Shown in pieces: positions 3,109-54,141 of a DNA stretch of 64,000 nucleotides. Both the position numbers and the translations under genes were made by a program. The notes beneath the pieces are model-generated. The model was not told the origin of the DNA. It made no database searches and saw only the letters and a program-made list of their open reading frames with translations. The stretch is from a phage, in the sequence record PQ374922.1. One strand, given 5' to 3'. Each line of letters opens with the position of its first letter. The first letter of the stretch is position 1.

Positions 3109-3875
3109 TCCCTAAATACCCCCATCATCCATGGGGGTATTTTCTTATGAACACACAGATCTATGACGCCCTATCACAGGGCAACGCCTTTACCAATCCT
3201 CTCCCGTCCCTCAGCAGCGCCTCACAGGGGTTAATCACCAGTGGTAAGGCGACTACAGCGTCACTGGCTAACACCGGAAATGCGCAGATTCAGGAAGCGC
3301 TGACGGCAGGTGGGTTGACTACAGCCAAACTCAACGAATCTACAGCAATGTTCAACTCAGCCAACAACAGCATCACTACTTTGAACAACTATGGCGACCA
3401 GTCAGTGAACGAGGCATATTCCCGCATCGGTACATCTGTGTCGTATAAGTCCGCCCTGAAGTCTATAGGTCGAGAACCGAACAACTGTGATCTGATCAAT
3501 AATGCATTTGGGGTTATTCAGAACCTCGGCAAACAGTGGATCAACACCATGCAAAGTGTTCTCACAACTATCACAAACAAGATGAATGAGCTGGCTGAGT
3601 TGGTAGCTCAGGGTGTCAGTGCTGGTCTTGATGCTATTCGGGCACTGGCTGCTGAAGTTACTCAAGCCATCGACACTGCTGTCGCATCAGTAGCCTCTAT
3701 TGCTCAGGACATCACGAACGGTATTGCAGCAGAGTTAGCCCATATCCAAGACATGGTTGGTAAGTGTCTTAACTTCTCTTTTGCCAACGTGATCTCAGAG
3801 TGGGCGAAAGATATCTGCGCCGGAGGTGTCATCAACAGCATTGGTTCCGATAATCTGAAGAACGCGCTGAAGTAA
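3105..3875 (+). CDS. hypothetical protein, Ala/Ser/Thr-rich (256 aa)
   Basis: Long ORF, alternative start at 3147; no motif recognised. Confidence 0.5.
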   Translation: MIPKYPHHPWGYFLMNTQIYDALSQGNAFTNPLPSLSSASQGLITSGKATTASLANTGNAQIQEALTAGGLTTAKLNESTAMFNSANNSITTLNNYGDQSVNEAYSRIGTSVSYKSALKSIGREPNNCDLINNAFGVIQNLGKQWINTMQSVLTTITNKMNELAELVAQGVSAGLDAIRALAAEVTQAIDTAVASVASIAQDITNGIAAELAHIQDMVGKCLNFSFANVISEWAKDICAGGVINSIGSDNLKNALK

Positions 3876-6340: not shown

Positions 6341-7849
6341 ATGGTAGACATTCAGATTGTTAAGGTTAACGAAGTCCGCATGCGTTGCATCGCAGATCTT
6401 TCTATCAGGGAAGAACTTAATGACTACTTCAAATTCGAAGACCCGAACTTCGTTCCCAACCCCTTTTCTAAATGGGACGGGGTTGTCCGCCTATTTACCA
6501 AGTCATCTGGTCTAATCGATATCGGTCTGCTGTTTGAGGTATTTAAGTTCTGTAAGAACAACGGATACACCATTGAACTGGATCCGGCACTGAAGTACAT
6601 TCAGGACATCCCAGATGAAGAAATCCGTGACTTCATCGACAGTCTGCATCCAAAGATCCGCACCGAAAATCACGAATATATCGATGCCGAGACTCGTGAC
6701 TACCAGTACGACACCATCGCCAAGGCTATGCGTCAAACCAGATGCGTCTGTGAACTGGCTACGAGTGCCGGTAAGTCCTTTATTCTGTATGTCATGGCGC
6801 GGTACTACAGGCGGCGCAGAGAAGCTCTCGAAAGTCCTCTGAAGACGCTTATCGTGGTGCCGTCAATCCACCTAGTCACTCAGCTGTACGACAACTTCGA
6901 AGAGTATGCACATGGCAGTGATTGGAAGCCCGTTGTTAACACCCAGCTGATTTTTGAGGGCGCGACAAAGGATATCAGCAAACCAATCGTCATCAGTACA
7001 TGGCAAGGCATTCAAGACCAGCCGAAGGAATGGTTCCACCAGTTCGGTGATATCGTGGTGGATGAAGTGCACACCTCCAAGTCTGAGAAACTGTCTTACA
7101 TCCTAAACAACTGCATCTATGCCGACCAGCGCCTGGGGGTTACAGGTACGCTGGCGAATACCAAAGTTGCCGGGCTTCAGGTGGTGGCTCACTTCGGGGC
7201 GTACCATAAGATCATCACGGCTCGCGATCTTATCAATCTCGGGTACGCCACTGACATCAAAGTGAAGATGATCCAGCTGAAGCACACTCCGGCGGATGCT
7301 GTTGGTCTGGACGGGGATTATTCCAAGGAAATAGAATACCTTATCACACACCAGTCCCGCAACGAACTGATCGCCAAGATGGCACTGAATCTGAAAGGAA
7401 ACGTGGCCATCATGTTCGAACGTATTGATGGTCACATGATGGTCGTGTATGATATGCTGAGCGCGGTCAAGCCCAACGTGTTTGTCATCAACGGGGAAGT
7501 AAAGATCGAAGACCGCCGCCGCATACAGAAAGCGATGGAGGATGGAGAGGACATCACCCTGTTGGCATCATACGGGACAATGCAGCAGGGAGTGTCGATC
7601 AAGAAGCTACACCACCTTGTACTGGCACACCCGAGCAAGTCATATATCCGCGTCATACAGACATTGGGTCGTCTGATGCGTCAGCACTCCTCTAAGGACG
7701 TCGCGTGGATATGGGACTTAGTGGATGATGCATCGTACAACGCCAGCACGAACCACGCTCTTAGGCACTCTCACGAGCGTTACAAGTTTTACCTGGCAGA
7801 GCGCCACCCTGTGGAGTTCATGAAGGTGGCGCTGGGTAATCACGATTAA
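6341..7849 (+). CDS. uvsW: SF2 DNA helicase, UvsW-like
   Basis: Walker A ATSAGKS, DEVH box, helicase C-terminal motifs; start at internal ATG with GGGAGA RBS (ORF track starts at 6248). Confidence 0.7.
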   Translation: MVDIQIVKVNEVRMRCIADLSIREELNDYFKFEDPNFVPNPFSKWDGVVRLFTKSSGLIDIGLLFEVFKFCKNNGYTIELDPALKYIQDIPDEEIRDFIDSLHPKIRTENHEYIDAETRDYQYDTIAKAMRQTRCVCELATSAGKSFILYVMARYYRRRREALESPLKTLIVVPSIHLVTQLYDNFEEYAHGSDWKPVVNTQLIFEGATKDISKPIVISTWQGIQDQPKEWFHQFGDIVVDEVHTSKSEKLSYILNNCIYADQRLGVTGTLANTKVAGLQVVAHFGAYHKIITARDLINLGYATDIKVKMIQLKHTPADAVGLDGDYSKEIEYLITHQSRNELIAKMALNLKGNVAIMFERIDGHMMVVYDMLSAVKPNVFVINGEVKIEDRRRIQKAMEDGEDITLLASYGTMQQGVSIKKLHHLVLAHPSKSYIRVIQTLGRLMRQHSSKDVAWIWDLVDDASYNASTNHALRHSHERYKFYLAERHPVEFMKVALGNHD

Positions 7850-8217
7850 TCTTGATTCACATAGGCGGGGGTGGCCTCGCCTTCATCAGTTACTACACCG
7901 AACAATTTGTCCAGAGAAGCCAGACATTGTGCGTTCAGGTGTTCACTGATCGTATCCTTCAGCATTTGTTCGCTGTTCAATTGGAATGGCAGAACCTTCG
8001 CTTCGATGCCGTTATCAAACGTCACAACGCCAACATACAGACCAACTTTCAGGCCTGTCATCAAGCCAAGGGGGACAAATCGCGGCTCCGATGGTAAGTT
8101 CTTGTCTGACGCCAGCTGTGTCAGATAAACTGGGGTGCCTGTGATAAATTGACCTGTGGTGAGGTTGGCGTCTGGCTTACTACACCCGACTGCGTATAAT
8201 CCTACGAACTGTTTCAT
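7846..8217 (-). CDS. hypothetical small protein, possible lipoprotein
   Basis: Minus-strand ORF with GAGAG RBS; N-terminus MKQFVGLYAVGC resembles a short lipobox; convergent with uvsW. Confidence 0.45.
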   Translation of the reverse strand: MKQFVGLYAVGCSKPDANLTTGQFITGTPVYLTQLASDKNLPSEPRFVPLGLMTGLKVGLYVGVVTFDNGIEAKVLPFQLNSEQMLKDTISEHLNAQCLASLDKLFGVVTDEGEATPAYVNQD

Positions 8218-8380
8218 ATATTACTCTCGTGTGTTGGTTAACATGACATACATATTATTTCGCGTGCATGTTTAGACCAAATAAATTATTTTTGTTGTTG
8301 AATAAAAACTGCTTTCTTGTTGAACAATGGCGTGGTATTATACGAGTTGTGAGCGTTAGCGAACAACGAGTATTTGTTTT

Positions 8381-8400
8381 ATGAGCGAAGCGAATAGGAT
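8381..8400. repeat. 20-mer atgagcgaagcgaataggat (copy 1), preceded by 12-mer tatttgttttat
   Basis: Exact reverse complement present at 53886-53905; 12-mer tatttgttttat also shared (8371-8382 and 53871-53882). Confidence 0.85.
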
Positions 8401-8408
8401 TAATAAAA

Positions 8409-8443
8409 GTTATTATCTTTAATAAGGTTATTATCTTTAATAA
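8409..8443. repeat. tandem direct repeat, 17-bp unit gttattatctttaataa x2
   Basis: Two identical 17-mers separated by 1 nt in the 360-bp intergenic region upstream of the clamp gene. Confidence 0.85.
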
Positions 8444-8449
8444 AGTCCA

Positions 8450-8470
8450 TAAATGCCGAAGGCATTTATT
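8450..8470. repeat. inverted repeat ataaatgcc-gaa-ggcatttat
   Basis: 9-bp perfect stem next to the tandem repeats. Confidence 0.7.
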
Positions 8471-8577
8471 AATAACGCGTAGCGCAATTTGCCACTTGTT
8501 CTATAAGCAAAACACAGCGATACTAGATTTCGTCAAACATGACTTGAACCACCACTATATTTTGAGGATACATACAA

Positions 8578-9246
8578 ATGCAAGAGATCACTCTCTCCGA
8601 ACGTACACTTCAGTTGCTGGCCAACTTTGAGACCATCAACCCATCTATCGTTCTGACACCGGGCAAGATGCTGCGCAGTATTAATGATTCTTCTACTGTG
8701 ATCGCCGTGGCGCAGATCGAAGAAGACTTCCCGTTTGAGTTCCCGATTCTGGACCTGACCAAACTTCTGGCCATCCAGCGCCTACCTTCCTTCAAAGGTG
8801 CCAAAGCCGAATTCCATCAGGACTACATCCTGTTGAAAGGTGAAAGTTCTCAGCTGCAATTCTGGCGTTCTGCTAAAGAACTCACGGTTGTCCCGGCTGA
8901 TACTATCGAACTGCCGTCTGTTGACTTTGAAGCGATCATCACTCCAGAGAAGATGAAAGAACTGACCCGCGCCTGTTCTACCCTCGGACATAAGACTGTG
9001 CGCCTGGTTGCTCAGGGTGGCAAAACTCGCCTGGTTGCAACCACCACTACCCTGGACAACTCCAACAACTACACTGTTGAGCTGGGTGAAACCGCGCTGC
9101 CGGACTTCGTAATGCCGCTGGATGTTGCCAACCTGAAAATGATCGAAGGCAACTACACTCTGCGTGCCTGTGCTGATCTACAGATGGTGAACTTCCAATC
9201 ATCCGACGCGACGATCAATTACTTCGTCGGCGCACAGATTGAGTAA
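8578..9246 (+). CDS. sliding clamp, T4 gp45-like
   Basis: 222 aa, E. coli-optimal codon usage, immediately upstream of clamp-loader ATPase; order 45-44-62-regA as in T4. Confidence 0.8.
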   Translation: MQEITLSERTLQLLANFETINPSIVLTPGKMLRSINDSSTVIAVAQIEEDFPFEFPILDLTKLLAIQRLPSFKGAKAEFHQDYILLKGESSQLQFWRSAKELTVVPADTIELPSVDFEAIITPEKMKELTRACSTLGHKTVRLVAQGGKTRLVATTTTLDNSNNYTVELGETALPDFVMPLDVANLKMIEGNYTLRACADLQMVNFQSSDATINYFVGAQIE

Positions 9247-9274
9247 TCAATCTCCAGCCTGATGCTATAATGTG

Positions 9275-9300
9275 TGGGCGGGGCGTTCCCCGCCTATTTG
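9275..9300 (+). terminator. hairpin plus T-rich tract after clamp gene, preceded by TATAAT
   Basis: gggcgggg-cgtt-ccccgcc then tatttg; TATAAT at 9265-9270. Confidence 0.45.
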
Positions 9301-12149: not shown

Positions 12150-12177
12150 AACAGAGGCTATAATGGCCTCTGTTTTC
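12150..12177 (+). terminator. terminator hairpin with TATAAT in loop
   Basis: cagaggc-TATAATg-gcctctg followed by ttttcg. Confidence 0.55.
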
Positions 12178-12195: not shown

Positions 12196-13416
12196 ATGAA
12201 AGATAAAGCCCTGGACGTCCCGTACTGCGGTGTCCGTGAAGAAAAGATAAAGTCGGCCAAACCGGTTCTCAGTCCGACCCATACCTGCCTGTCTTACGAA
12301 TGGATGCGCGATCGTTATCAGATCCACGTCAAGAAGGACGTCCAGCGCCTTCCTGCTCCTTGGACTGATAATCCCATATTACGGCAGGTCAAGTTCTGTA
12401 ACGTCCGGAGAGAGCACGACAGGCAGTCTCTCAACCTGATCAACAACATCGTCAACAACGATGCTCTGGGTATGGCCGACAAGATGTTCAACTGCGTGTT
12501 GTTCCGCATGTTCAACCTCTGGGATCCAATCCAGGCTATCGGCGGCGCGATGACGATCAAAGAATTCGCCGAGATCAACCTCGATGCAACCCGCGAACGA
12601 CTTAAGAAGTTCGAGGCCGACGGCGGTAAGGTATTCACCAATGCCTTCAACACGGGCGGCCTGAAACAATGCCTGGCTTTCCCTGAGATGGTTGTCAACC
12701 ACAAGGAGCAGCGCTTCGGTGGGATGATGGTGAATCTGATCTGTAAAGATGGTTCAACCCAGAACATGGATTATAAAGAAGCCAAGGCGATAGCCGAAGC
12801 AGAACCGGACTTCTACACCATCGAAGGTTGGGAACCGTACATGCCAATGCGTGTCATCCGCTCCCTGAAGGCATTCGTCAACAAGTATCCAAATTACTTC
12901 CATGACCTGCTGCGCCTTGGTACTCCTTTGGAAGTATACCAGCGCATGTACGACGACATCGAAGGGCTTGGTCCATTCCTGGCCTATCAGATCTGGGTAG
13001 ACTTCACTTACATTCCTGAATATCCTTTCAGTGAGAACCACTTCACGGTTGCTGGACCAGGCTGTCGCGCAGGGATCGACCTGATGTTCCAGGACAAAGA
13101 TGGCATGACGCATGAAGAATGCATCTTCTGGTTGCGGGACAATCAGGACGCGGTTTATGGCCCTCTTGGGTATAACAGGGAAGAATTTTGGTCTGCGGAA
13201 GAGCCTTGGGATCAGTGTATGAATGTGATGAGCATCGAGAATATGGCATGTGAATTGTCGAAATATACTCGTTGTGTAGAGGCCATACAGCAAGGTAAAA
13301 AACCGCGCGGGAAGGTTGGATATGACGGCGGTGGGGAATACAAAAAGCGCTGTGATGAAGTCGTGCTCAAACGTGGTTCCGTCAATTTGCTGGACCGTTT
13401 GAAGAAACCTGAATAA
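12196..13416 (+). CDS. hypothetical protein (406 aa), candidate nucleic-acid modification enzyme
   Basis: Long ORF after terminator-promoter hairpin; no motif confidently recognised. Confidence 0.6.
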   Translation: MKDKALDVPYCGVREEKIKSAKPVLSPTHTCLSYEWMRDRYQIHVKKDVQRLPAPWTDNPILRQVKFCNVRREHDRQSLNLINNIVNNDALGMADKMFNCVLFRMFNLWDPIQAIGGAMTIKEFAEINLDATRERLKKFEADGGKVFTNAFNTGGLKQCLAFPEMVVNHKEQRFGGMMVNLICKDGSTQNMDYKEAKAIAEAEPDFYTIEGWEPYMPMRVIRSLKAFVNKYPNYFHDLLRLGTPLEVYQRMYDDIEGLGPFLAYQIWVDFTYIPEYPFSENHFTVAGPGCRAGIDLMFQDKDGMTHEECIFWLRDNQDAVYGPLGYNREEFWSAEEPWDQCMNVMSIENMACELSKYTRCVEAIQQGKKPRGKVGYDGGGEYKKRCDEVVLKRGSVNLLDRLKKPE

Positions 13417-38089: not shown

Positions 38090-41008
38090 ATGTCAAAGCT
38101 AAGTTTCCTCCAGTTCATGCAGGAAAGAGATCAGTTGGACGAAGCGTTCAACTCCGCTCCGTATGAGCTGACCATGGGCAAGAAGAACGCAGGCGATGTG
38201 TTCTTCACCTTCATCGACGAAGATGAAAAGGAATACCGTATTCAGTTCTATACCCCTCAGGGGCTGGGTAAGAGTGTTCGTCAGGTTTTCATCGGCCAGA
38301 AGCGCGGCTCCGTCTATCCTGACGCCATCGCTCGCTTCAAGAACCCAATGCGCGTTATCGCTTCCATGATCGAAGCGACCAAACAATTCATGGCGACTCC
38401 TCTGGGCAAGACCATCGATGGCTTTGCTGTCAACTTCTCTAAGAAAGCCCTGGATCGCGGTATGACCCTGATTCCTAAGATCATCCGCCAGTCCGGCCTG
38501 AAGCAGAAACTGAACGTCATGGACCTGACCTACGCGCCTGTTCCTGACCGTGGTTATGTGTGGCTAGTTCGTAAGGGTAAAGATCCGGCTCAGGTATTCG
38601 ACGGTCCGAAGATGCAGGGTATCACCTGGGATGATCCAGACAAAGTCGGTGACGTTCCGGTTCAGAACAATACTCCGGATGTGGGAGTTGGGGCTGGTTC
38701 TTCTGAAATCGAAGTCAACCGCGAGTGGTACAACAGCTCGGACACTGGTCTGGAGTTGAAGAGCGGGCGAGACCCGATTCGTGGAAATTACGTCCGTCTG
38801 ATAAGCGGTTCGAAAGAAGTAGCCACATTCTATGGTTATGATTTTGACAAATATCCAGACGGGACTGAGGTATCTTGGAATATGAAGCGCGGCTTCACCA
38901 ACCAAGACTTGGTCGGTGCGTCCATGACCAAACAGAAGAAAGGTATGTACGATCAGTACACTTTCAAGAAAGGTACTCAGATAATTCTGGTGGTGGACGT
39001 TGACACCAGCAATGACACCAGCAATGACACCAGCAATGGCAACGGATGGAAATTAACTTCAAACGGGGATCAGCCCATGTTGTTATGGGCTGGTAAGGAG
39101 AGAGGCCGCACGAACACGGCAAATATCGCTCCCCACTACAATGAGCCGGGCGTGTATGTTGGCGCATACATGAATGAGAAACCTGTGCGTGGGCAAAGTG
39201 CTGATTTCATTGCTCGTCAGTTGAAATTACCGCAAGTCCCTATCAATATCCTGAATGATTTCACCATGGCGTCTACAAAATTTTGGAAAGGTTCTCAAAA
39301 CAGTTCAGACAGAAATAACCCAGCCAACATTATCGGTTCTGGAACTGCTGTTATTGATGCCAAACGACTTGGTGCTCGAGAAGTAAACGTTGAACGATTC
39401 AAAAACGGTGTTCGCATGCGTTCTCAAAACGGTGACGTCGACATCAGTATTTCTGACCCAGACTTTTCAAATGCAGCAAGTGCGACTGATGCTGCTACTG
39501 CCTCTGTTGTGGTCAAGAACGGGCGTTACGAAGGTGCCATCAATTCAAAGCGCAAGATTGCCCGCACCTCGTACGAGCAGGGTACTGAATGGGATATCAT
39601 CGGTGTCAACGGGGAAACCCTTGTCTCTATCAAGTTGAACAAAGTGTCTAAATCCGCATCGGATTCGACCGAGGGTGCAACCAGTGTTGATCAATTACGT
39701 GACAGTGGTTTCATCGCTCGTGTTCTGGGTATCATTGATACCAACGTTGGGCTGGACACTTCTATTCTTCCTGGTGAAAACATCCGTCGCGTGGGCGCTG
39801 GTCGTTACACGACGGCAGGCGGGTTGGTTATCGTTGTCAACTTCACAAACGTCCTCGCTGGTTTCGTTCAATACTCAGTTTTCAGCGAAATTGCTGAAGA
39901 GGAGAACGTGGCCAAAGGTAGCGCCCGTGACGTCGCCAATGCGGTAATTGCGTCCATCTTTGAGGTTGCCAAGACCCAGTACACTGGGAAATGGGAAATT
40001 AGCGCAGTGCCAACAAGCGCTCCATATCCTATCAAAGCCATTCGCCGTTCTCGGGGCTGGGGTTATGTGGAAACCGCAAACTGGACTCTGACAGTGTCCG
40101 ACGCTGTCCTGAATCGTGTGAAGCCAGGGAAAACTGCCCTACTGGAACTCATCAAAGAACCTCCGCGTGGCAAGCACCCGCTGGAAATCATCCCAGAGAA
40201 GGGCGACAAGACCCTGATGCTGAAAGATCGTATTACCGGGGCCATCTATGGTTCTATCGACCTGAATGCCCAAGGCGCTGATCTGGTCAACTCTGGAACC
40301 CTGAAGATGCCACGCAACGCCATGGTGTTTGGTGAGACTGTCAACGGTATGTCCATTCGGTGGGATGTCAATTTCCCCGAAACGGGAAAATACGCCGGTG
40401 CTTCTATGATAACCAACGTGACCTATTACTACGACAAAGGTAAAGTTGCATTCACCCCAATTGTCTCTCAGAAAGGGCGTACCCTGAACAATCCGAAGAC
40501 ATATGAACTTCCTTTAAACAAAGATATGGTCCAGAGTGTGATTGATGAGATTTCATCAAAAATGGAATATCTTTCCAGAAACCTCCAACAGTTGAAAAGT
40601 CAGTCATACAACCCAAACCAGGTGTTCTTGAACGATATAACCATCACGGATAAAGGTGAAGTGATTTGGAATGATTACAACTTGTCTGACGGCAAAGTTA
40701 CACAAATTATGCTGTCCATGATAAGCGCAGAAAATAAACGTCTAGAGAAAGTGGCAAACAAGCCGGATATCAATATCACATTGCCAAAGAAACAAGCTGA
40801 AGTGATAGAATTTATAAACCGGATGATCGACATTGATCTCACCCCTTATGTGAGAACCCCCAAAAAACGTGATGTGGTATTATTTGACTCTTCTGAATTG
40901 TCGATGAACCAACTCAACAACATAGAACGCCTGGGAAGAGAAACAGGAAAATGGTCTCTTCAGTCAAACGGCGGTATGGGTCATGCACTATTTCTGAATG
41001 TTTGGTGA
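38090..41008 (+). CDS. large hypothetical protein (972 aa) with internal SNDT tandem repeat
   Basis: Uninterrupted 2.9-kb ORF; 12-bp x3 tandem repeat at 39002-39037; 3' ~500 nt markedly AT-richer. Confidence 0.7.
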   Translation: MSKLSFLQFMQERDQLDEAFNSAPYELTMGKKNAGDVFFTFIDEDEKEYRIQFYTPQGLGKSVRQVFIGQKRGSVYPDAIARFKNPMRVIASMIEATKQFMATPLGKTIDGFAVNFSKKALDRGMTLIPKIIRQSGLKQKLNVMDLTYAPVPDRGYVWLVRKGKDPAQVFDGPKMQGITWDDPDKVGDVPVQNNTPDVGVGAGSSEIEVNREWYNSSDTGLELKSGRDPIRGNYVRLISGSKEVATFYGYDFDKYPDGTEVSWNMKRGFTNQDLVGASMTKQKKGMYDQYTFKKGTQIILVVDVDTSNDTSNDTSNGNGWKLTSNGDQPMLLWAGKERGRTNTANIAPHYNEPGVYVGAYMNEKPVRGQSADFIARQLKLPQVPINILNDFTMASTKFWKGSQNSSDRNNPANIIGSGTAVIDAKRLGAREVNVERFKNGVRMRSQNGDVDISISDPDFSNAASATDAATASVVVKNGRYEGAINSKRKIARTSYEQGTEWDIIGVNGETLVSIKLNKVSKSASDSTEGATSVDQLRDSGFIARVLGIIDTNVGLDTSILPGENIRRVGAGRYTTAGGLVIVVNFTNVLAGFVQYSVFSEIAEEENVAKGSARDVANAVIASIFEVAKTQYTGKWEISAVPTSAPYPIKAIRRSRGWGYVETANWTLTVSDAVLNRVKPGKTALLELIKEPPRGKHPLEIIPEKGDKTLMLKDRITGAIYGSIDLNAQGADLVNSGTLKMPRNAMVFGETVNGMSIRWDVNFPETGKYAGASMITNVTYYYDKGKVAFTPIVSQKGRTLNNPKTYELPLNKDMVQSVIDEISSKMEYLSRNLQQLKSQSYNPNQVFLNDITITDKGEVIWNDYNLSDGKVTQIMLSMISAENKRLEKVANKPDINITLPKKQAEVIEFINRMIDIDLTPYVRTPKKRDVVLFDSSELSMNQLNNIERLGRETGKWSLQSNGGMGHALFLNVW
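39002..39037 (+). repeat. in-frame tandem repeat, 12-bp unit gacaccagcaat x3 (encodes DTSN x3)
   Basis: Three perfect copies inside the 972-aa ORF. Confidence 0.9.
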
Positions 41009-53777: not shown

Positions 53778-53811
53778 ATTGAATTCCGGTTGTCAAACAA
53801 GGATTTGAAGG

Positions 53812-53819
53812 TATTTATG
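53812..53819 (-). promoter_or_regulatory. late-promoter-like CATAAATA upstream of gp5-like gene
   Basis: 7/8 match to TATAAATA on minus strand, 35-42 nt upstream of ATG at 53777. Confidence 0.4.
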
Positions 53820-53885
53820 CGCAGCTGTTTTTGCCTTATATACTATAGGAAGCTCTGCTTCCGTTCATTTTATTTGTTTTATTCG

Positions 53886-53905
53886 ATCCTATTCGCTTCG
53901 CTCAT
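53886..53905. repeat. 20-mer copy 2 (inverted orientation)
   Basis: atcctattcgcttcgctcat is the reverse complement of 8381-8400. Confidence 0.85.
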
Positions 53906-54112
53906 CAAACCGCCCTATGCGGGCAGCACCATTCCAATGCCATGGAGGCATAAGGGCGAGGCAATAACTGTACACCCCAGAACACTCCTTGAAAAATGGT
54001 ATTTTACTGACAATCTGATTCAAAACAGACAAACACCAACAAATGACTCGGGAACAAGCCCATTATAGCAATTTCAGGTAAAGAGAGTGCGTGTTAACCG
54101 ATTTTACAGTTA

Positions 54113-54141
54113 AGCCAATAAAAATCCCGCCGAAGCGGGAT
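54113..54141 (-). terminator. rho-independent terminator for minus-strand gene 54290-55096
   Basis: atcccgc-cgaa-gcgggat with A-run on + strand (T-run on - strand). Confidence 0.6.

Follow-up and report, generated by a model that had tools for sequence, protein, structure and literature searches.

What is the function of a 360-bp stretch without a conserved gene in front of the sliding-clamp gene of an Ackermannviridae (ViI-like) phage? This question was raised by the non-coding region at positions 8218–8577 of sequence record PQ374922.1, of which 64,000 nt, here called the window, were analyzed; all positions are given per window. The region separates a minus-strand open reading frame (ORF) of 123 amino acids from the clamp gene gp45. 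A preliminary description had pointed out a tandem repeat, a palindrome and a 20-mer motif in it and had suggested an iteron-like origin of replication, a regulatory hub or a small RNA. Comparison with related phages supported the hub or small RNA through purifying selection, three promoter-like signatures of fixed spacing, hairpins with compensatory changes and paralogous copies. On balance we lean, by a modest measure, toward a conserved transcription-control hub of the clamp/clamp-loader/regA operon which would encode a short structured RNA.

Conservation of the region was determined first against phages Vi01 and Menlow. The intergenic sequence exhibited identities of 0.80 and 0.75, respectively, compared with 0.76 and 0.74 for the coding sequence of gp45, 0.51 and 0.48 for the third codon positions of gp45, and 0.55 and 0.51 for the 123-aa gene. 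These values support purifying selection on the region. At least 80% of its length was covered in 271 of 273 matching phage records, and 12 phages from four genera (Agtrevirus-like, Limestonevirus, Kuttervirus and Taipeivirus) were aligned. A lack of conservation in relatives had been named in the preliminary description as what would refute its proposal; conservation was found across all four genera for the region as a whole, but not for the repeat.

No ORF of at least 15 amino acids is kept between genera, and the insertions and deletions within the region are not multiples of three and break every reading frame. The region's only ATG ORF (8268–8384, 38 amino acids) is frame-broken in Ag3 and missing in the other genera, and conservation is likewise lacking for a 39-aa ORF in the annotation of phage Mooltan; both were rejected. 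The stretch is non-coding, as had been stated, and the AT-rich tracts mentioned there are present (GC content 0.33 versus 0.49 window-wide, with a particularly AT-rich spacer at 8401–8447). Its length is less special than had been thought: 360 bp is long, but a crude ORF map of the window contains at least nine further gaps of 200–460 bp, and the real gp26–gp5 intergenic region (about 53778–54141) has approximately the same length.

Two adjacent hairpins, H1 and H2, were found on the plus strand, each with tandem G·A pairs of the sheared type and a GC clamp of two pairs within the stem. H1 (8340–8373) consists of 11 Watson-Crick pairs, two tandem G·A/A·G motifs and a GUUA loop. Its tandem G·A core occurs twice, as CGAG...CGAG and as UGAGC...GCGAA, and the sequence GCGTTAGC lies inside it at 8353–8360. 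When paralogous H1 sequences were added to the alignment, 77 of 77 cells (100%) were paired over seven sequence types and four pairs showed compensatory (double) changes, compared with 23–64% paired cells in slid controls. Among orthologues of the clamp-upstream copy, designated c1, a compensatory change from C-G to U-A and a change from U-A to U·G were observed. H2 (8376–8400, plus strand) is composed of a flanking stem, tandem G·A/A·G pairs, a GC/GC clamp and a GAA loop, with GCGAAGC at 8385–8391. Its closing pair covaries in the c1 orthologues, being U-A in 6 sequences and C-G in 10. H2 corresponds to the 20-mer motif of the preliminary description. This sequence, ATGAGCGAAGCGAATAGGAT, is present at 8381–8400 and possesses one further exact copy on the minus strand at 53886–53905, for which the chance expectation is 0.03. 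The H2 loops of the paralogues read GAA, AAA, GUA, UUCA, AUA or AAC, or are exchanged for a loop of 13 nt or an additional stem-loop of 18 nt; the GAGC...GCGA flanking the loops is invariant in the paralogues of c1.

The plus strand (sense for gp45) folds as RNA with −15.4 kcal/mol (z −3.0) versus −5.9 for the minus strand, and the G·U pairs and tandem G·A motifs fit the plus strand only. Two other structures were considered and rejected. A minimum free energy alternative for the H2 of the window, in which UAUUUGUUUU pairs with GAAGCGAAUA, obtained no support from the orthologues. A hammerhead ribozyme, suggested by UGAUGAGC...GCGAA in the copy c2 described below, would require the core CUGANGA...GAAA, which is not conserved; the corresponding positions vary in orthologues (UAUGA, CACGA, GCGAGU), and the Rfam hammerhead gave no match at E values up to 10.

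The second copy of the 20-mer belongs to a larger family. Besides c1, a copy c2 lies upstream of the baseplate-hub gene gp5 (53848–54075, minus strand) and a copy c3, located outside the window, upstream of the wedge gene gp6 in 276 phage records. A covariance model built from the c1 orthologues alone found every c3 copy (E 2e-6 to 2e-5) and gave a weak match to c2 (53881–53925, 18 bits, E 0.06); it found no other match in the window and none in Vibrio Ackermannviridae. c1 and c3 can be aligned from the A-tract/−35 block through H1 and H2, except for an insert of about 40 nt. Copy c3 is made up of H1, insert and H2; c2 contains insert and H2. The insert of c2 and c3 folds into two hairpins, Ha and Hb, and the loop of Ha (CCAU) pairs with AUGG further downstream to give an H-type pseudoknot. 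In an alignment of 20 distinct c2/c3 sequences 97% of the cells were paired (slid controls 31–47%), and compensatory changes were found in 7 of 20 pairs. One of these pairs lies in the pseudoknot, with A-U in 14 sequences and C-G in the other 6. For c3 a long-range helix was also predicted and was discarded, as the orthologues give no support for it. Judged from these alignments, H1/H2 is a reduced ('mini') member of a three-copy family present in all four enterobacterial Ackermannviridae genera sampled. An isolated extra H2-type hairpin was observed in an AT-rich intergenic region of four Kuttervirus contigs; it has a perfect 9-bp stem (GTAAACTAC-GAGCGAAGCGA-GTAGTTTAC).

The surroundings of c2 are also conserved. 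The gap 53778–54141 is conserved as strongly as 8218–8577 and contains a terminator followed by the extended −10 promoter TGCTATAAT. Read on the minus strand, this promoter is followed by Ha, the pseudoknot, Hb, H2 (53886–53905) and a 3' hairpin (53862–53848), with a leader of about 115 nt between the promoter and the structured element. The 3' hairpin covaries, changing from GGAAGC...GCTTCC to GGATGC...GCATCC in Taipeivirus. A late promoter, CATAAATA, is located just past the 3' (low-coordinate) end of c2 (53819–53812, minus strand). In both c2 and c3 such a late-promoter motif stands between the element and its gene (CATAAATA and CTAAATAT, respectively), and both motifs are invariant across genera. 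Both c2 and c3 lie between an early-type promoter and the late promoter of the gene.

In the region upstream of gp45 three sites resemble sigma70 promoters. The first, P(-), is a putative leftward promoter for the 123-aa gene (8252–8280, minus strand) with a −35 element TTGGTC (8280–8275), a 17-nt spacer and a −10 element TAATAT (8257–8252); the Shine-Dalgarno (SD) sequence GAGAG of this gene is located at 8228–8224 on the same strand. The spacer measures 17 nt in 24 of 24 homologues, the hexamers being conserved and the spacer sequence variable. P1, a putative distal rightward promoter (8301–8341, plus strand), comprises an A-tract (8301–8308), a −35 element TTTCTT (8313–8318), a 17-nt spacer and a −10 element TATTAT (8336–8341) that reads TAnTAT in relatives. 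Here the spacer has 17 nt in 20 of 24 homologues and 18 nt in the remaining 4. A TAAAAACTnCTTTyyT block with TATnnT 17 nt downstream is common to P1 and the paralogue upstream of gp6. P2, the putative proximal gp45 promoter (8496–8524, plus strand), consists of TTGTTC (8496–8501), a 17-nt spacer and GATACT (8519–8524). Its hexamer blocks are invariant in the 12 aligned sequences; the spacer differs in sequence but not in length, measuring 17 nt in each of the 23 complete homologues. P2 is followed by a conserved 5' leader of gp45 (8525–8577, plus strand) with the SD sequence GAGGA at 8564–8568, and the leader block GCGATACTAnnTTGCGTCAAACATGACTTGAA..CCACTATATTTTGAGGATA is nearly invariant in the 12-phage alignment.

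All three sites thus show sigma70-type spacing (−35 and −10 elements 17±1 bp apart) and match the sigma70 consensus at three to four of six positions per hexamer. They are promoter-like signatures, from which we infer promoters. Such sites had been expected: Kutter et al. (2011) stated that the divergence points of ViI-like phages must hold promoters in both directions that were still unidentified at that time, and these phages are devoid of MotA and AsiA (PMC3184105). A literature search found no transcriptome for any Ackermannviridae phage. A clearer promoter class, TTTACT-N17-TATACT, is present in other intergenic regions of the window. As a separate observation, the octamer TTCAATAA occurs in 10 plus-strand copies, for example at 675, 936, 1934, 1956, 13437, 22527, 27679, 37578, 44512 and 61846, all of them intergenic and none inside plus-strand genes; it usually adjoins a terminator hairpin or a TTTACT-N17-TATACT promoter and may belong to a terminator–promoter cassette.

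For phage LIMEstone1 the GenBank record contains a different proposal, namely a 'putative middle promoter' on the minus strand which involves the same nucleotides and has its −35 element inside H2. This call was derived from a pattern search with the T4 MotA box (PMC3296691). A MotA-type middle promoter was rejected, since the phages are without MotA and a hairpin on the opposite strand fits the conserved bases better.

Between H2 and P2 lies a further hairpin, T (8449–8469, plus strand), with a 9-bp stem and a 3-nt loop. It is the palindrome that had been reported at 8450–8470; the palindrome exists, but its true position is one base further to the left. T is conserved in both Aglimvirinae and Cvivirinae, the loop changing from GAA to GUCA and the stem showing no covariation, and Taipeivirus carries a different, AT-only palindrome at this place. 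T does not have the G+C-rich stem and U-tract of an intrinsic terminator, its plus-strand tail being TAATAACG, and a terminator scan flagged it on the minus strand only. The late-promoter-like sequence CATAAATG (8448–8455) starts one base upstream of T and overlaps its left arm. It resembles CATAAATA and CTAAATA motifs located 16–46 nt upstream of late genes. A T4-type late promoter for gp45 at this site was not adopted, as the distance to the ATG is 130 nt and conservation of the motif does not extend to Taipeivirus. As an observation in its own right, CTAAATACC(CC) motifs at 3112, 6309, 36235 and 41435 (plus strand), of which the 6309 copy is situated 32 nt upstream of uvsW, look like the late-promoter element of the phage; in the 2011 CBA120 paper the late motif of ViI-like phages was described as then undefined.

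The vicinity of late-promoter-like motifs could point to a role of the element at the DNA level. H1/H2 could be a protein-binding or structure-specific site, either a nicking or clamp-loading site that activates late promoters or a regulator operator of the form GAGC-N3-4-GCGA. Each of the three cassettes has a late-promoter-like motif 44–84 nt behind H2 (CATAAATG at 8448, CATAAATA at 53819, CTAAATAT in c3), and T4 late transcription needs gp45 loaded at nicks or primer ends (PMC3184105). However, the motif is not a duplex palindrome, the loop length ranges from 3 to 18 nt, the compensatory changes keep intra-strand pairing and not a fixed duplex sequence, and the late-promoter-like motif of c1 suffers from the position and the lack of conservation already mentioned. 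We regard such a site as very unlikely.

The spacer between H2 and T contains the feature that first attracts the eye. The 17-mer GTTATTATCTTTAATAA occurs at 8409–8425 and 8427–8443 and obtained a Tandem Repeats Finder (TRF) score of 78, the top score in the window. Both exact copies are present as had been described, but a single G stands between them and the period is 18 and not 17. The AT-rich variable spacer 8401–8447, which holds this 18-bp duplication, is the least conserved block of the 12-phage alignment. The duplication is confined to the subclade of the window (LHE287, ZQ1, RPN242, PC3, CECAV_050 and one IMG/VR contig). Ag3, SKML-39, fGh-Ecl02, RC-2014 and all Dickeya phages have a single unit, and in Kuttervirus and Taipeivirus the unit is missing though the surrounding region is conserved. 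Accordingly, a 57-nt query spanning the repeat gave a one-piece match only in LHE287, ZQ1, RPN242, PC3 and CECAV_050. In more than 25 further records of Aglimvirinae the match was reduced to 39 nt, with a single copy. A repeat with a 19-nt period was found in an IMG/VR relative.

These data bear directly on the proposed iteron origin, in which an initiator protein would attach to the 17-nt repeats. An exact tandem repeat in an AT-rich tract near replication genes speaks for it. Yet an array of at least three direct repeats would be expected and two units are present, the duplication is missing in most Aglimvirinae and the unit itself in Kuttervirus and Taipeivirus, and the GC skew of the window shows no inflection, which is weak evidence in phages. 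Since there are two units only, which are lineage-specific and situated in the least conserved stretch, an iteron array is ruled out, and an origin of this type, already contradicted by the comparative data, is extremely improbable. By this comparison the 18-bp repeat arose recently in the spacer, as a slippage duplication, and has no conserved role; the eye-catching repeat is a red herring.

How might the conserved parts work together? From left to right the layout comprises P(-), P1 with its A-tract, H1/H2, the AT-rich spacer, T, P2 and a leader of about 50 nt with the SD sequence. In the proposed model host sigma70 RNA polymerase would start at P1 early in infection and produce a short structured RNA of roughly 120–130 nt, ending partly at T. 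Read-through transcripts would carry H1/H2 as a 5' leader, and the bulk of the gp45 mRNA would come from P2. Most likely the hairpins would be the active part of the RNA: they would bind a protein or the polymerase, or have a stabilizing effect. Base-pairing to targets is unlikely because the single-stranded parts are not conserved, only the hairpins. A stand-alone early small RNA is a possible variant of the model; it fits c2 and c3, since these are followed by late genes with late promoters of their own.

Several observations weigh against this control hub with its structured RNA. The predicted P1 start, deduced from the −10 element at 8336–8341, is near 8347–8349 and thus inside the 5' strand of H1, so that RNA from P1 could form the inner part of H1 only; the full hairpin would need upstream read-through RNA or single-stranded DNA. 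Covariation of the outer H1 pairs is seen between paralogues only and not within the c1 orthologues, and because the sequences are closely related shuffle controls overstate significance. P(-), P1 and P2 score poorly against the sigma70 consensus, and a promoter scan called none of them. T has three G-C pairs, no plus-strand T-run and no covariation and is replaced in Taipeivirus, so termination at T is doubtful. Moreover, GCGTTAGC and GCGAAGC are known as extraordinarily stable DNA mini-hairpins (PMC13037366), which together with the P1 start inside H1 keeps a role at the DNA level alive.

One such role is that of an R-loop-type origin like oriF and oriG of T4. Transcription from P1 would leave a persistent RNA–DNA hybrid, the displaced non-template strand would fold into H1/H2 DNA hairpins, the AT-rich spacer would unwind, and the three cassettes would represent three origins. 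T4 has multiple origins, and several copies per genome are likewise found here. The order of the elements is suggestive, with a promoter, hairpins and then a tract of 85–90% AT, which begins about 55 nt past the predicted P1 start, beside replication genes including uvsW. The P1 start inside H1 fits a displaced DNA strand more easily than an RNA hairpin, and GCGTTAGC and GCGAAGC are mini-hairpin motifs of the complementary-strand origins of G4, St-1 and alpha3 (PMC13037366). However, conservation is lowest in the AT-rich tract, which measures only about 15–25 nt in the gp5 and gp6 copies. The mini-hairpin loops vary (GCTTTGC in H1 of Kuttervirus and Taipeivirus; UUCA, AUA and AAC in c2). An H-type pseudoknot with covariation, like conserved G·U pairs, is characteristic of RNA, the GC skew is unchanged, and the other two copies precede baseplate genes. 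We judge an origin of this kind to be distinctly unlikely.

The position of the hairpins directly behind an early-type promoter recalls the put sites of phage HK022. As a cis-acting antiterminator the nascent hairpins would bind RNA polymerase and cause read-through of T and of the terminators within the operon. The put-type layout was found here, with H1+H2 (8340–8400) after P1 and paralogues in c2 and c3: two stem-loops of about 60 nt directly follow an early-type promoter, and the paralogues share sequence. The model fits this position and the terminator-rich genome. A GC-rich hairpin (9280–9297) follows gp45, the equivalent site being annotated as a terminator in phage Menlow, and about 40 intergenic terminators were reported for AG3 (PMC3121705). 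Antitermination has also been proposed for delayed-early control in phages without MotA (PMC3184105). On the other hand, early read-through would be odd in front of gp5 and gp6, since these are late genes which possess late promoters, and the P1 start would truncate H1. A put-like function therefore appears unlikely.

A broader interpretation, which we put forward as a tentative and less probable extension of the control hub, considers the family as a whole. Its members could be undescribed early-transcribed structured RNAs of enterobacterial Ackermannviridae that act in the missing early-to-late control of phages which possess gp55, gp33 and gp45 yet lack MotA and AsiA. They could act on RNA polymerase in a put-like manner, or provide R-loop RNA 3' ends for clamp loading or priming, and the clamp-loading or priming sites could then lie beside the late promoters of gp45, gp5 and gp6.

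The element was also compared with known families. Rfam 15 at gathering thresholds gave 0 matches in the 64-kb window, relaxed scans (E up to 10) of c1, c2 and c3 gave chance-level matches only, and a search for tRNA and transfer-messenger RNA (tmRNA) found none. Mimicry of the host was not apparent, as no similarity to 5,426 E. coli genomes was detected. A motif scan of bacterial genomes yielded chance matches only, with one spurious full-pattern match in 120 loci, and in IMG/VR motif scans the elements occurred only in Ackermannviridae contigs, matches elsewhere being at chance level. Vibrio Ackermannviridae (Campanilevirus GR28A, K493) have an AT-rich gap upstream of gp45 without H1/H2. A miniature inverted-repeat transposable element (MITE) or other mobile element was dismissed; the single paper found on this mentions the family in its reference list only.

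With respect to the genomic context, window positions 7800–9300 share 98.6% identity with Escherichia phage YX22 and 93.7% with Shigella phage Ag3. The 123-aa ORF (7846–8217, minus strand) had no match in Pfam. The clamp gene (8578–9246, plus strand) is related to T4 gp45 (tblastn, E 4e-9); uvsW lies upstream, and gp44, gp62 and regA follow. In Dickeya phage RC-2014 (L006, 1–1132) an HNH endonuclease gene interrupts uvsW in the manner of an intron or intein; the window has no such insertion. Two further elements were noted at a distance from the region. At 12150–12174 (plus strand), just upstream of a 406-aa ORF starting at 12196, an 11-bp stem-loop was found whose loop and upper stem read GCTATAAT, so that this hairpin, which resembles a terminator, includes the −10 element of a promoter. 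At 39001–39038 a perfect 12-bp tandem repeat, TGACACCAGCAA in 3.2 copies (TRF score 76), lies inside a 972-aa ORF (38090–41008) and would encode an in-frame repeat of four amino acids.

In 2011 the control of early and middle transcription in ViI-like phages was described as yet to be identified (PMC3184105). These phages are widely used in biocontrol and therapy against Salmonella, E. coli O157, Klebsiella and Dickeya. New are the coordinates of three candidate promoters and a conserved structured element with three copies per genome in at least 270 phage records, which is absent from Rfam and from the annotation of the GenBank records inspected. Should the element prove to be a functional RNA, it would open a way to study the timing of clamp and first baseplate gene expression; as an origin, it would be the first one mapped in the family.

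Finally, the element was compared with known phage systems. T4 oriF(uvsY) and oriG(34) share with it a promoter followed by an AT-rich stretch, several copies and T4-like replication genes with UvsW. The T4 origins, however, use MotA-dependent middle promoters, whereas P1 is sigma70/early-like and the phages have no MotA (PMC3184105). In addition, the AT-rich stretch is variable and the hairpins are conserved here. HK022 putL and putR are about 70 nt long and have two stem-loops, putL being located just downstream of PL and putR about 270 nt downstream of PR (PMC9378689). They likewise represent two-stem-loop paralogues near early promoters with non-canonical pairs in the stems (PMC9378689). 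In contrast to put, tandem G·A motifs form the basis of the stems described here, and c2 and c3 have an additional pseudoknot module and stand before late genes.

The mini-hairpin DNA motifs GCGNAGC and GCGNNAGC, known from the G4, St-1 and alpha3 origins and from the early promoters of N4, have exact matches in H1 and H2 (PMC13037366). The loops of the relatives differ (UUU, AAA, UUCA, AUA, AAC or a long stem), but the GA...GA and GC pairs are kept, and the mini-hairpin motif is not conserved everywhere the element is, c3 of Kuttervirus having an 18-nt stem-loop instead. Since relatives replace the loops and keep the flanking pairs, the conserved feature is the tandem-G·A helix and not the mini-hairpin. 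Arbiol, Comeau and Krisch reportedly described in 2010 PeSL (promoter-early stem-loop) cassettes of T4-type phages, which are said to be short, numerous and simple. Simple cassettes of a promoter and a GC hairpin are present in the window too, for example between gp45 and gp44 (9262–9300, plus strand), where the extended −10 promoter TGCTATAAT is directly followed by the GC-rich hairpin GGCGGGGcgttCCCCGCC. The H1/H2 family has in common with PeSL the repetition of intergenic cassettes consisting of an early promoter and a stem-loop, but differs from it by the number of three copies, by fixed positions across genera and by a complex covarying structure with a pseudoknot.

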